Notes under the pieces: model-generated
Told to the model about the DNA's origin: nothing
What the model saw: the letters and a program-made list of their open reading frames with translations, nothing else
Database searches by the model: none
Program-made: the position numbers and the translations under genes
Shown here: in pieces, positions 18,838 to 48,900 of the stretch
Layout of the letters: each line of letters starts with the position of its first letter
Position numbering within the stretch: position 1 is the first letter of the stretch
Assembly: GCF_003334815.1 (NCBI RefSeq)
Contig: NZ_QOWO01000003.1
DNA from: Escherichia coli
GTDB lineage: Bacteria; Pseudomonadota; Gammaproteobacteria; Enterobacterales; Enterobacteriaceae
Strand: one strand, 5' to 3'
DNA length: 64,000 nucleotides

Positions 18838-19335
18838 TGTGAATGCCTGATGCGACGCTTGCCGCGTCTTATCAGGCCTACGCCAGACAGCGCAATAGCC
18901 TGATTTAGCGTGATTTTGTAGGTCGGATAAGGCGTTTATGCCGCATCCGACATCAACGCCTGATGCGACGCTTAACGCGTCTTATCAGGCCTACGCCAGA
19001 CAGCGCAATAGCCTGATTTAGCGTGATTTTGTAGGTCGGATAAGGCGTTTACGCCGCATCCGACATCAACGCCTGATGCGACGCTTGCCGCGTCTTATCA
19101 GGCCTACGCCAGACAGCGCAATAGCCTGATTTAGCGTGATTTTGTAGGTCGGATAAGGCGTTTATGCCGCATCCGACATCAACGCCTGATGCGACGCTTA
19201 ACGCGTCTTATCAGGCCTACGCCAGACAGCGCAATAGCCTGATTTAGCGTGATTTTGTAGGTCGGATAAGGCGTTTACGCCGCATCCGACATCAATGCCT
19301 GATGCGACGCTTGCCGCGTCTTATCAGGCCTATCT
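18838..19335. repeat. Tandem array of about five 113-bp units, each containing paired REP palindromes
   Basis: GCCTGATGCGACGCTT(G/A)... recurs at about 18845, 18958, 19071, 19184 and 19297 (period 113 bp); units near-identical with a few substitutions. Confidence 0.85.
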
Positions 19336-20117: not shown

Positions 20118-22265
20118 TTACGCCAGTGCCGCTTCGCGCAGGCGAGTTTTCAACTTGTTGTACTCGTCAATCACGTACTGCTCGGCGGCGCGCTGATCGG
20201 CGATCGGCTCGACGCGAACGGCGCAGTATTTGTACTCCGGCGTTTTCGTAATCGGGCTTAAGTTTTCAGTAACCAGCTCGTTACAGGCACCAATCCACCA
20301 CTGGTAGGTCATGTAAATCGCCCCTTTGTTCGGACGATCGCTGACCTGCGCACGGGTGATAATTTTGCCTTTACGCGAGTGCACCCAAACCAATGCCTCA
20401 TCTTCAATACCCAGACGTTTGGCGTCTTCGGTATTGATTTGTGCGTAGCCAGGTTCATCAGCCAGCGCCGCCAGTGCCGCACAGTTACCGGTCATCGAAC
20501 GGCAAGAGTAGTGACCAACTTCACGCACCGTTGACAGTACCATCGGGTACTCGTCGGTGAGTTTGTCGATTGGCGCTACCCAGTCGCAGGTGAAGAACTG
20601 CGCCAGACCGTTCGGGGTATCAAACTTCTCTTTAAACAGATAAGAAGTCCCCTGATCGGCATCTGAAGTATCGCGGCAAGGCCACTGAATGAAGCCCAGT
20701 TCGCCCATTTTCTCGTAAGTCGCACCGTAGAAATCCGGGCACAGATGACGCAACTCATCCCAGATCTCCTGGGTGTTGTTGTAGTGCATCGGATAACCCA
20801 TACGGGTGGCGATTTCACTGATGATTTGCCAGTCCGTTTTCAGATCCCATTTCGGTTCAACCGCCTTGAAGAAACGCTGGAAGCCACGGTCAGCCGCAGT
20901 AAACACGCCTTCATGCTCGCCCCACGACGTTGACGGTAAAATAACATCCGCCGCCGACGCGGTTTTGGTCATAAAGATGTCCTGAACGATAACCAGTTCC
21001 AGATCTTCAAAGGCTTTACGTACTGCCGACAGCTCCGCGTCAGTTTGTAGCGGATCTTCGCCCATAATGTACGCGGCACGCACTTCGCCATGCGCTGCGC
21101 GGTGCGGCAGCTCGCTGATGCGATAGCCGGTATGCGCTGGCAGGCTTTCCACGCCCCAGGCTTTGGCGAATTTCTCGCGGTTAGCCGGATCTTTCACGTA
21201 CTGGTATCCCGGATACGTATCCGGCAGCGCGCCCATATCGCAGGCACCCTGAACGTTGTTCTGACCACGAACCGGGTTAACACCCGCATGCGGCTTACCG
21301 AGGTTACCGGTCAGCATCGCGAGGCTGGTCAGAGAACGCACGGTTTCCACGCCCTGGTAGAACTGGGTTACACCCATGCCCCACAGGATGGCGGCGCTTT
21401 TCGCCTGGGCATACATCCGTGCCGCCTGACGAATCTCACTGGCGCTGACGCCGGTGATATCTTCAACCGACTCCGGCGTGTAGCCTTCAACGATTTTACG
21501 ATACTCTTCAAAGCCTTCTGTACGTGAAGCGACGAACGCTTTGTCGTACAGATTTTCTTCAATAATGACATGGCCCATCGCATTCAACAGCGCGATGTTC
21601 GAGCCGTTTTTCAGTGCAATGTGCATGTCAGCAATGCGCGCGGTTTCAATTTTGCGCGGATCGCAGACGATAATTTTCGCCCCGTTACGTTTAGCGTTAA
21701 TTACGTGATTCGCCACGATTGGGTGGGAATCCGCCGGGTTGTACCCGAAAACGAACACTAAATCGGTATTATCAATTTCGTTAATAGCATTGCTCATTGC
21801 GCCATTACCGACCGATTGGTGCAGACCTGCAACCGATGGGCCGTGTCAGACACGAGCGCAGCAGTCAACGTTATTGGTACCAATAACGGCGCGCGCAAAT
21901 TTTTGCATTACATAGTTGGTTTCGTTACCCGTACCACGCGAGGAGCCGGTCGTCTGGATGGCATCCGGACCGTACTTCTCTTTGATGGCGCTCAGGCGCT
22001 CGGCAACGTAATTCAGTGCCTCATCCCAGGAAACAGGTTCGAGTTTGCCGCCACGCTGGCGACGGATCATGGGGGTTTTCAGGCGCGGGGTCAGGATCTG
22101 GGTATCGTTAATGAAGTCCCAGCCATAATAACCCTTCAGACACAGGGTACCCTGGTTGGTTTTCCCCTGCGCTGCCTCCGCCCGGACGATTTTGCCGTTA
22201 TCGACGACCAGGTTGATTTTGCAACCTGATGCGCAATAGGGGCAAACCGTGACGACTTTTTTCAT
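20118..22265 (-). CDS. fdhF: Formate dehydrogenase H (selenocysteine-containing molybdoenzyme of formate hydrogenlyase)
   Basis: Two in-frame ORF-track pieces (21846..22265 ending ...DCCARV, and 20118..21797) joined by a TGA at 21846..21848 read as selenocysteine; total 715 codons. Confidence 0.95.
21800..21848 (-). other. Selenocysteine UGA codon plus downstream SECIS stem-loop
   Basis: mRNA sequence UGA CAC GGC CCA UCG GUU GCA GGU CUG CAC CAA UCG GUC GGU AAU matches the fdhF SECIS as I remember it. Confidence 0.85.
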
Positions 22266-22304: not shown

Positions 22305-22333
22305 TCGACTACAGTATGCATCTTTTATGCCAC
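22305..22333 (-). promoter_or_regulatory. Sigma-54 (-24/-12) promoter of fdhF
   Basis: On the minus strand TGGCAT-AAAAG-ATGCA, with GG and GC separated by 10 nt, about 40 nt upstream of the start codon. Confidence 0.75.
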
Positions 22334-22394
22334 ATTTTATGTGGGGTCATTCCCTGATATTACGGGCACTATTTATTCAAAACTCTGACGAAAA

Positions 22395-22440
22395 ACAGGC
22401 TGTCGTCAGTTTTGACGTGACGAAACGAAATACCGCGTGA
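22395..22440 (-). promoter_or_regulatory. Candidate FhlA upstream activating sequence
   Basis: Inverted-repeat-rich TGTCGTCAGTTTTGACGTGACGAAACGAAA about 100 bp upstream of the sigma-54 promoter. Confidence 0.5.
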
Positions 22441-22462
22441 CAGCCATCACGCGGCAGACATT

Positions 22463-27510: not shown

Positions 27511-29420
27511 TTAATTTGGGGTTACGATATTCACCCACAAATCGAAATTATCCAGACAGGCGATAATTTCTTCCAGTTTCGCGCCATTGCCAATAATTTT
27601 GGCTTTCTTCGCTTTTACCAGATCCGCCATTTTGGCTTGTCCGGTCAGCACGGCGTGCAGATCTTCACGGCTGATGTAGAAAGAGGCGTCGGCTTGCGGT
27701 TGCAGCGTTTTCCGGTAGTTAAGCACGCTATCGTTCAGCGTCAGGTTGAGGTTATCGCCGTTGCTCATATTGAAGTTCAGGCTGATATTTTTACCCGCAG
27801 CTTTCGCGCTATCGAGGCGAACGGCCATAAAGTCGAACAGCATTTCGACCGACATCCCGCGAATGGTGTCCGGGGAACCGGTGGTGCCGTGGCTGAACTT
27901 ATGCACCCCTTCGCGCAGCTCTTTCGCGCCGGTCAGGTAGAAACCGCGCCATGTGGCGGACTCGGCCTGATAGCCCAGCTGTTCAAAGTTATTCGCTTGC
28001 AGATTCTTCGCGACCTGGTCACCCGGGTTGGCGGCAATCACCTGTTTCAGCAGTTCTGCCGACCAGCGGTAATCACCTTGCTTGTTCGCTTCTTGCGCCA
28101 GGTTGATGACACGGGCAGAACCGCCCAGCGCCTGCACGTAACGTTTACCCATCTCCACCTGACCATACGGATGCAGGTTAGCCGGGTTACCGTCGTAATA
28201 GCCAAGATAGAAGTTATACACCGCGCGGGCGTTGTGGCTGACAGAACCGTAATAGCCGCGGCTGGCCCAGTTATTGGCAAGTGCAGGCGGCAGCTTAATC
28301 ATGTCGCCGATTTCATTCATGGTGTAGCCCTGGTTCGCCAGGTGTGCGGCATAAACAGCACTTCCGCGTCGTTACCCCACATATCCAGCGTTTCGTTCAG
28401 ATACTCGGTCCACTTGCTGGTGTCGCGGGTTTTCGCGCCGCGCAGAGTGTAGAAGTTGTGCAGGGTATGCGTGGCGTTCTCGGCGGTACACAGGGCTTTC
28501 AGGGCCGGAATATAGAAGTGCATTTCGGCTGGCGCTTCGCTACCTGGGGTCATCAGGAAGTCAAACTCCAGGCCGTCGATAATCATCTTCTCGCCAGTTC
28601 TGACGATAGTTTTCGTCGGTGCAATAATGCTCGGGTCGCCCGTTGCCAGCGTCACGCCAAGGCCATTACCCACATTGCCTTGCGCGTTGTGCGGCAGTAA
28701 CAGACCGTAAGAGTAGAGCGCACGGCGGCTCATGATGTTACCCGCCAGCACGTTTTCGCTGATGGCTTCGTCCATAAAGCCTGCAGGGGCAATCACCTGA
28801 ACTTTGCCGGATTTAACATCGGCTTCAGAGATAATGCCTTTCACGCCACCATAGTGGTCGGTGTGGCTGTGAGTGTAGATAACGGCAACAATCGGTTTTT
28901 GCGGACGATGCTGGAAGTAAAGGTCAAGTGCGGCTTTTGCGGCAGGCGGCGTCACCAGCGGGTCGATAACAATAATGCCTTTCTCGCCCTCAACGAACGT
29001 AATGTTAGAGATATCCTGGCCGCGCACCTGATACATTTTATCGGTGACTTTGAACAGGCCAGAAATACCGTTGATTTGCGACTGACGCCACAGGCTGGGG
29101 TTTACGGTTTCCGGCGCTGCGGCATTAATATCAAATTTGTAATCGTCCGCGCGGTAGTAAACTTTACCGTTCGCATCACGCAGAATACCTTCATCCAGCA
29201 GCGGGGCGATAAATCCACGCTGGGCATCGTCAAAATCCTGACGATCGCTAAACGGTAATGATTTGGCGTAATTCTGATTAACCTGTTGGGTATATTGAGT
29301 GGCGGCTTTCGCTTCCTCTTTCGCGTTAGCGGTATTTACCATCATGCCGCTGGCGGCAGTTAACGCAATAACAATCCTGCTCAAACGGAATAACCGAGAG
29401 TTATTCATATAAATCTCCAT
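27511..29420 (-). pseudogene. yjcS: SdsA1-like alkyl sulfatase (MBL fold plus SCP2 domain), disrupted by a frame shift
   Basis: ORF track splits it into 28317..29420 (367 aa, ends ...[16 protein letters not shown]) and 27511..28320 (continues ...[12 protein letters not shown]... in another frame); junction near 28335..28340. Confidence 0.7.
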
Positions 29421-45253: not shown

Positions 45254-46104
45254 TCAGATAAAGTGCTTACGCAACCGTTGAGAGAGGAAATCCAGCAGGC
45301 TGACCGTGACGATGATAAGCACCATCAGGGCGCAGGTTTGTTGGAACTGGAAACCGCGAATCGCTTCCCACAGGGTGACGCCGATCCCGCCTGCGCCGAC
45401 CATGCCGACGACGGTCGCCGAGCGGACGTTGGATTCGAAGCGATAGAGGGAGTAGGAGATCAGCAGTGGCATCACCTGTGGCAGCACGCCGTAGAGGATC
45501 TCTTCGAGCTTGTTGGCACCGGTGGCGCGAATGCCTTCCACCGGGCCGGGTTCAATCGCTTCCACCGCTTCGGAAAGCAGCTTGGAGAGCACGCCGGTGG
45601 TGTGGATAAACAGCGCCAGCACGCCAGCACGCCAGCGAACGGGCCGAGGCCGACGGCGACCACGAACAGCATGGCGAAGACCATTTCGTTAATGGCGCGG
45701 CAGGCGTCCATCAGGCGGCGAACGGGCTGGTAAACCCACCACGGCACCAGGTTTTCGGCGCTCATCAGGCCAAAGGGGATGGAGAGAACCACCGCCAGCG
45801 CGGTGCCCCAGACGGCGATTTGCAGCGTGACGGCCATTTCGGTGAGGTAATCCTGCCACTGGCTGAAATCGGGCGGGAAGAAGTCGGCGGCGAACGTCGC
45901 CATGTTGCCGCCGTCTTTGATCAGCGTAAGCGGGGCCATTTCCGCGCCCTGCCACGAGACGACCAACACGGCGAGTACAACGGCCCAGCTCAGAAGCGAG
46001 AACCAGCTGCGCTTGGGTGGGGCGATGGTGATGGTTTGCATGTTTGGCTCCGGTCTGTAGGCCGGATAAGGTGCTTGCACCGCATCCGGCATCAACGCCT
46101 GCAC
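45254..46104 (-). pseudogene. phnE: PhnE, phosphonate ABC transporter permease, frameshifted at an 8-bp repeat (K-12 cryptic allele)
   Basis: ORF track splits it into 45472..46104 and 45254..45622 in different frames; three tandem GCCAGCAC-type copies at about 45614..45637. Confidence 0.9.
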
Positions 46105-46143
46105 ATTGTCGGATGCGACGCCGGGGCGTCTTATCCGACCTAC
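46056..46143. repeat. REP/BIME element in the phnE-phnD spacer
   Basis: Inverted pair TGTAGGCCGGATAAGGTGCTTGCACCGCATCCGGCA and GTCGGATGCGACGCCGGGGCGTCTTATCCGACCTAC. Confidence 0.8.
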
Positions 46144-48552: not shown

Positions 48553-48616
48553 GATGGTGACCTCAGTTAAGAGAAGCCAGTTAAGTGTAGTTCGAAATTT
48601 ATACAGATGAGAGGCG

Positions 48617-48900
<284 letters not shown>

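Follow-up and report, generated by a model that had tools for sequence, protein, structure and literature searches.

Codon 140 of the Escherichia coli fdhF gene is an in-frame UGA that is almost certainly decoded as selenocysteine (Sec), directed by the adjoining SECIS hairpin via SelB. The element is the E. coli fdhF SECIS itself, in the same gene and the same species, and it represents a textbook case that is already known. The gene lies on the minus strand of a 64,000-nt stretch of E. coli DNA, referred to here as the window; all coordinates are positions within this stretch. The gene and its parts are as follows:

20118..22265, minus strand: fdhF coding sequence, 715 sense codons followed by a TAA stop; formate dehydrogenase H

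21849..22265, minus strand: N-terminal ORF piece, codons 1–139, with the 4Fe-4S cysteine motif CPYCASGC...C

21846..21848, minus strand: UGA codon 140, assigned to Sec from the sequence, the gap in the family profile and the alignment with X or Cys

20118..21845, minus strand: C-terminal piece, codons 141–715 plus the stop, in the frame of the N-terminal piece

Translation of the frame 22265..20118(-) yields 716 codons, and a TGA at codon 140 (21848..21846, read 5'→3' on the minus strand) is the sole internal stop. The minus-strand context of this codon is TGC TGC GCT CGT GTC TGA CAC GGC CCA TCG GTT GCA GGT CTG CAC CAA TCG GTC GGT AAT GGC. In the program-made list of open reading frames, fdhF is cut at the TGA into 21846..22265(-), with 139 aa, and 20118..21797(-), with 559 aa; the latter starts at the first ATG past the TGA, and both share one frame. 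The initial annotation had held that a 715-codon fdhF exists only if the TGA at 21846..21848 is decoded and that ORF calling splits the gene. The single frame with its lone internal TGA at codon 140 bears out the first statement, and the ORF list, which breaks exactly at the TGA, bears out the second.

Formate dehydrogenase H is the molybdopterin/selenocysteine subunit of formate hydrogenlyase, and the Sec residue at its active site ligates molybdenum. We compared the two ORF pieces with the NCBIfam equivalog profile TIGR01591 (formate dehydrogenase subunit alpha), for which the curated whole-protein cut-off is 666.25 bits. The N-terminal piece corresponds to profile positions 1–128 (195.8 bits) and the C-terminal piece to positions 130–672 (873.7 bits, which exceeds the cut-off by itself). 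The lone position skipped between them is 129, the site of the UGA. A shared frame and a formate dehydrogenase match for both pieces had been proposed as a check on the initial annotation, and both were found.

The joined protein, with X at position 140, agrees with E. coli formate dehydrogenase H over all residues from 1 to 715 (PDB 1aa6, 1fdi, 1fdo, 2iv2 and 7z0t), and the PDB chain has the non-standard residue X at position 140 too. Among other solved formate dehydrogenases, position 140 aligns with X in 9t1s and with Cys in 7qv7, 7bkb and 9wxb. The active-site motif CARV-U-HGPSVAGL is aligned to CARLXH, CARLCH, CARICH and CARVCH of these homologs, which corresponds to a common pattern CAR[VLI][U/C]H.

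The two ORF pieces could also be read as independent genes, one encoding a 139-aa protein that ends at the UGA and the other a C-terminal protein that starts at ATG 21797. Some termination does take place at this codon: recoding on the fdhF mRNA is achieved by ~30–40% of ribosomes, and the others terminate (PMC4513850), so that a 139-aa truncated by-product is made. Nevertheless, the two pieces are in one frame, the 16 codons from the TGA to the ATG (HGPSVAGLHQSVGNGA) are conserved as protein, and the family profile is continuous over the junction. In the solved structure, all 715 residues belong to one polypeptide, and the full-length 80-kDa selenoprotein is already present in the literature and the PDB. 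We therefore regard two independent genes as exceedingly improbable and treat fdhF as one gene with a recoded UGA.

The neighbor of fdhF on its upstream side is mdtP, which lies on the same strand, and yjcO follows downstream. By blastn, the window is ~99.95% identical to the part of the E. coli strain 300709 genome that covers soxS...fdhF...melR. A promoter-like element is found upstream of the gene:

22317..22332, minus strand: sigma-54-type promoter-like element TGGCAT-N6-TGCA (GG-N10-GC), ~50 nt upstream of the ATG, read from the sequence

TCGTCA/TGACGA repeats are situated upstream of this element, at about 22423..22381(-). Both the element and the repeats fit sigma-54/FhlA-dependent control, which we take to apply to fdhF. 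The sigma-54-type element is context and lies outside the recoding signal.

At the DNA level, fdhF is 100% identical to the annotated fdhF of several E. coli chromosomes, and of 5426 complete E. coli genomes, 5420 contain the gene. In RefSeq, the identical DNA is recorded as a single fdhF CDS of 2148 nt, with the product name 'formate dehydrogenase H subunit alpha, selenocysteine-containing' in some records, and the codon has been named 'TGA140' (bioRxiv 10.1101/2025.02.04.636165).

The Rfam model RF01988 (SECIS_2) matches 21853..21799(-) over its entire length (model positions 1–55 of 55) with 87.1 bits, compared to a gathering threshold of 70; the E-value is 1.7e-19 when 601 nt are searched and 1.8e-17 for the entire window. 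The element and its apical part are as follows:

21799..21853, minus strand: full SECIS (Rfam RF01988), with a lower helix around the UGA, an internal-loop/bulge region and an apical hairpin

21818..21834, minus strand: apical 17-nt stem-loop GGUUGCAGGUCUGCACC, with the loop GGUC at 21827..21824 and a bulged U at 21831

The Rfam element begins 5 nt upstream of the UGA and runs ~47 nt past it, with the UGA located within the base of the structure. Unconstrained folding of the 55 nt at 21853..21799(-) gives a bulged hairpin with a minimum free energy (MFE) of −19.7 kcal/mol, and this structure is the SECIS_2 consensus, pair for pair. It consists of a 5-bp outer helix enclosing the UGA, a 7-bp lower stem with a single-nucleotide bulge, a 2-bp segment and the apical hairpin GGU-U-GCA [GGUC] UGC-ACC with its bulged U. 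In alignment columns, the apical stem occupies 20–36, the loop 27–30 and the bulged U 23, and the apical stem-loop begins 11 nt after the UGA (G20).

The minimal E. coli SECIS is reportedly a 17-nt apical part 11 nt past the UGA, as Liu et al. are said to have established in 1998. A hairpin 3' of the UGA with a bulged U and a GGUC loop, in which G and U are exposed, is likewise said to have been described in Liu 1998, Huttenhofer 1996 and Fourmy 2002, and Liu et al. 1998 and Fourmy et al. 2002 reportedly identify the apical stem-loop as the SelB-binding part.

With respect to the SECIS, the initial annotation was correct in placing a hairpin 3' of the UGA, but the extent that it gave, 21800..21848, is slightly short at both ends. 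It had also suggested RNA folding as a check. The hairpin does form at the energy given above, but this result is not discriminating, as the hairpin is no more stable than chance when compared to dinucleotide-preserving shuffles (z = −0.49 for 49 nt, −1.23 for 55 nt, −1.22 for 41 nt and −0.67 for 17 nt). Since composition-matched shuffles come close to this stability, the lack of a stable hairpin would be a weak argument for refutation; comparable folding is usual for G+C-rich sequences of such length. We dropped the MFE z-score as a criterion for SECIS, given that values of −0.5 to −1.2 are not significant, and the hairpin itself stands. Excess thermodynamic stability is not a defining feature of the SECIS_2 family, and what rises above chance for the SECIS is the covariance-model score together with the pattern of conservation.

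To collect relatives without reference to the hairpin, we scanned one genome per species with the pattern TGYGCNCGNNTNTGACAYGGNCC, which represents Cys-Ala-Arg-x-UGA-His-Gly-Pro with free third positions and contains the TGA but nothing from the hairpin. The scan yielded at least 120 loci and, together with the window copy, at least 121 matches with at least 92 distinct 69-mers. At least 113 matches from many genera show formate dehydrogenase context (*HGP[ST]V), and all of these are open in frame beyond the TGA. Eight of the 121 matches listed (L036, L042, L047, L052, L060, L085, L096 and L104) are chance matches that have neither formate dehydrogenase context nor a hairpin. They were excluded and serve as informal negative controls.

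Since an ORF caller sees two pieces, the TGA might be taken for a true stop, and fdhF for a nonsense pseudogene or the product of a sequencing error. However, the at least 113 matches continue in frame as conserved formate dehydrogenase, and in the window itself the 575 codons past the TGA are open and account for the 873.7 bits against TIGR01591. The solved protein is full length in its crystal structures. Furthermore, the SECIS 71-mer, which includes the TGA, is identical in 5406 of 5421 E. coli records, as compared to 4728 of 5421 for a control 71-mer located 150 nt downstream in fdhF. The probability of a true stop is thus vanishingly small, and we retain decoding of the UGA as Sec. One variant of the 71-mer was inspected; it carries T21852C, which turns a U-G pair into C-G, and T21804C at an unpaired position, and both changes are synonymous.

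The 50 distinct 55-mers among the matches listed form a gapless alignment, in which 87.1% of the cells can pair as the Rfam structure requires, compared to 24–48% when the 3' partners are slid by 1–3 columns. None of 500 shuffles reaches the observed pairing or covariation score. Pair 20–36 is G-C in 35 and U-A in 10 of the 50 sequences; in terms of codons, the switch combines a synonymous change, TCG→TCU, with a change from Gln (CAA) to Lys (AAA). Since the sequences are related and the independent events are few, pairing and covariation are supportive but not decisive.

A sharper measure is available from 86 distinct relatives with more than 70% amino acid identity over 220 codons. Mean codon entropy is 0.15 bits for the four- and six-fold degenerate codons located at +4..+13 relative to the UGA, whereas it reaches 1.37 bits for the 65 codons of this kind in the flanking 100–120 codons on each side (Mann–Whitney p = 2.7e-6). 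This comparison is unbiased by relatedness because the positions are compared inside one sequence set. GUU(+5), GCA(+6), GGU(+7) and CUG(+8) show zero synonymous variation in the 86 relatives, and the ten degenerate codons that vary least over the whole stretch are all located within −1..+15. The synonymous freeze goes beyond protein constraint, and an RNA signal can account for it.

These data bear on a further explanation, in which a near-cognate Trp or Cys tRNA reads through the UGA independently of SECIS and SelB, and the hairpin is a by-product of protein conservation. The peptide HGPSVAGL is indeed conserved and constrains much of the RNA, and the folding energy is unexceptional. Protein conservation nevertheless fails to explain why the synonymous positions are frozen exactly over the hairpin, or why amino acid changes are paired with changes that keep the stem, as in the switch of pair 20–36 from G-C to U-A; the element also clears the curated Rfam threshold. 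We consider SECIS-independent read-through very improbable. Purifying selection acts on the hairpin at the RNA level, and we found nothing that contradicts the Sec/SECIS explanation.

Across the 50 distinct sequences among the matches listed, the loop columns G27, G28, U29, C30 and U31 do not vary. Of 21 distinct apical 25-mers, 19 fold into a hairpin with a GGUC or GGUCU cap that is kept by compensatory changes. In Pasteurellaceae, the bulge has moved by one position (GU-AGCA...UGCU-C), and in some members the apical stem contains an A-C mismatch. Morganella, Proteus, Providencia, Edwardsiella and Hafnia have Gln in place of His (CAC→CAG); there, the bulged U is predicted to be absorbed into a continuous 6-bp stem. 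For Desulfovibrio, the predicted structure is a bulgeless stem of 6–7 bp capped by GGUCU as a 5-nt loop.

Conservation is weaker in the lower stem, where pairs 17–39, 15–41 and 8–47 are unpaired in 10–34 of the 50 sequences. Its disruption in some taxa is consistent with a requirement for the apical part only, which is also the view held in the literature on bacterial SECIS. Blind RNAalifold on the 50 sequences returned a weak and different consensus (−3.73 kcal/mol) that pairs the invariant columns 9–15 with 27–32. We rejected this alternative: in the window sequence, it reaches −4.3 kcal/mol versus −19.7 kcal/mol for the canonical structure, and it is not backed by compensatory changes in the apical part.

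The variants show lineage-specific SECIS architectures in the relatives. They leave some room, albeit little, for C-terminal domains of SelB that would recognize these hairpins differently in a case of RNA–protein co-evolution; we regard this as unlikely. If the bulged U is dispensable in those lineages, altered recognition by the SelB C-terminal domain must follow. For the window element itself, no novel reading is left.

The E. coli selC sequence matches the annotated tRNA-Sec in 5425 of 5426 complete E. coli genomes. The window itself contains no tRNA, and trans-acting Sec genes, including those for SelA, SelB and SelD, are absent from its gene list. SelA, SelB and SelD are established in E. 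coli. We infer SelB binding, ribosomal delivery and selenium incorporation from the literature. Decoding of UGA 140 as Sec would require the mRNA hairpin, whose apical stem-loop, with its GGUC loop and bulged U, would bind to the C-terminal domain of SelB; binding of the fdhF SECIS has been assigned to the C-terminal WH3/4 domains (PMC7590224). SelB would carry GTP and Sec-tRNA(Sec), the selC product with anticodon UCA, and the Sec-tRNA would be made by SelA and SelD. The tethered ternary complex would then deliver Sec-tRNA(Sec) to the ribosomal A site, competing there with release factor 2, such that a substantial fraction of ribosomes would read through the UGA and the remainder would terminate.

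The window element is identical to the SECIS of E. coli fdhF (RF01988, SECIS_2), the prototype bacterial SECIS, with no difference between them and with the UGA at codon 140 in both. The SECIS of fdnG/fdoG-type formate dehydrogenases (RF01989, SECIS_3) is likewise a SelB-dependent hairpin. It directly follows, on the 3' side, an in-frame UGA of a molybdopterin formate dehydrogenase, and its apical loop contains G and U. However, the stem sequence and the lower helix of the window element differ from SECIS_3, and since it scores 35.8 bits against a SECIS_3 gathering threshold of 63, it is not a member of that family. Cys-containing formate dehydrogenases (7qv7 FdhF, 7bkb and 9wxb) have the same fold and share CAR-x-[U/C]-H, where the aligned residue is the metal ligand; these homologs would use an ordinary Cys codon and need neither recoding nor a SECIS.

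Eukaryotic and archaeal SECIS also recode UGA to Sec, with the help of a structured mRNA element and an elongation factor of their own. They are situated in untranslated regions, differ in architecture, being built on a kink-turn, and rely on other binding partners (PMC11881835). In contrast, the fdhF SECIS is located inside the coding sequence, directly after the UGA.

fdhF is the founding bacterial case of programmed UGA-to-selenocysteine recoding and has been dissected for decades. Its rediscovery adds nothing new. For annotation, it should be noted that pipelines without Sec recoding would report fdhF as two fragments or as a pseudogene. With respect to method, folding energy judged against shuffles misses a bona fide SECIS, whereas synonymous suppression flags it very sharply, and such suppression is worth using to screen for unknown recoding signals inside coding sequences.

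Upstream of fdhF, the minus strand, which encodes the gene, carries the following features.

22317..22332, minus strand: sigma-54-type −24/−12 element, TGGCAT-N6-TGCA, upstream of fdhF
about 22381..22423, minus strand: repeated TCGTCA...TGACGA motifs, further upstream of the sigma-54-type element
about 22440..22460, minus strand: hairpin rich in G+C, with a run of T after it

Judged by their sequence, the TCGTCA...TGACGA repeats look like a putative upstream site for binding of an activator (FhlA), and the hairpin with its T run resembles a terminator, putatively that of mdtP.

Two small-RNA families match elsewhere in the window, both well over threshold.

937..1077, minus strand: sraL (153.3 bits)
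54558..54723, plus strand: STnc630 (181.8 bits)

By comparison with E. coli strain 300709, the sraL match lies immediately downstream of soxR, and the STnc630 match is placed at the proP–pmrR interval. Tandem repeat arrays with matches to the Rfam family naRNA4 (RF02564) were found at two positions.

18845..19332, between gltP and yjcO: 113-bp unit in 4.3 tandem copies (96% match)
48616..48895, naRNA4 matches on the minus strand: 100-bp unit in 2.8 tandem copies

Every copy of the 113-bp unit contains a REP-like palindrome, and it is this palindrome that matches naRNA4, with four matches on the plus strand (71–79 bits). The 100-bp array, with three minus-strand matches (95–111 bits), sits where strain 300709 has the yjdN–yjdM intergenic region. 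At this array, ~80 nt are shared between blastn pieces in the alignment to strain 300709 and the coordinate offset shifts by 100 bases, suggesting that the copy number of the unit differs between the window and that strain.

The alignment with strain 300709 is also interrupted at about 28337..28344, with a shift of 88 bases in the coordinate offset; thus, ~88 bp present in strain 300709 are absent from the window. The gap falls inside the range annotated as yjcS in that strain. Two further genes are of note with respect to their reading frames.

45254..46104, minus strand: phnE, apparently split into two overlapping ORFs of 122 and 210 aa in different frames
46060..46140: naRNA4/REP match at phnE
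14498..16180, plus strand: nrfE, a single open ORF of 560 aa

The phnE counterpart in strain 300709 is annotated as "frameshifted", and the split gene of the window resembles the frameshift in phnE that is known from K-12-type strains. In contrast, nrfE is open in the window but annotated as frameshifted in the near-identical strain 300709, a difference that may correspond to the sole gap in a 28-kb blastn alignment.

Among 5426 complete E. coli genomes, the search for fdhF gave no match in six, and one genome has two copies; plasmid-classed records hold 4 of the 5421 matches. The gene for tRNA-Sec (selC) had no match in one of the 5426 genomes.

Folding of sequences from a scan of one genome per species (loci numbered L) reveals that the apical hairpin of the SECIS differs between lineages. 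In Morganella, Edwardsiella and Proteus (L025, L028, L030, L035 and others), the predicted fold incorporates the bulged U in a stem of 6 bp, and in Desulfovibrio (L024, L046), the stem has no bulge and a 5-nt GGUCU loop. Three Pasteurellaceae loci (L032, L045 and L088) have an A-C mismatch that removes the predicted apical stem in all three sequences. Several Enterobacterales among the matches listed possess two fdhF-type selenoprotein loci per genome, on separate contigs.

Cedecea neteri: paired fdhF-type loci L014 and L015
Pluralibacter gergoviae: paired fdhF-type loci L020 and L021
Silvania hatchlandensis: paired fdhF-type loci L071 and L072

In the two locus pairs for which sequences were listed, the UGA is present in each copy and the SECIS is nearly identical.
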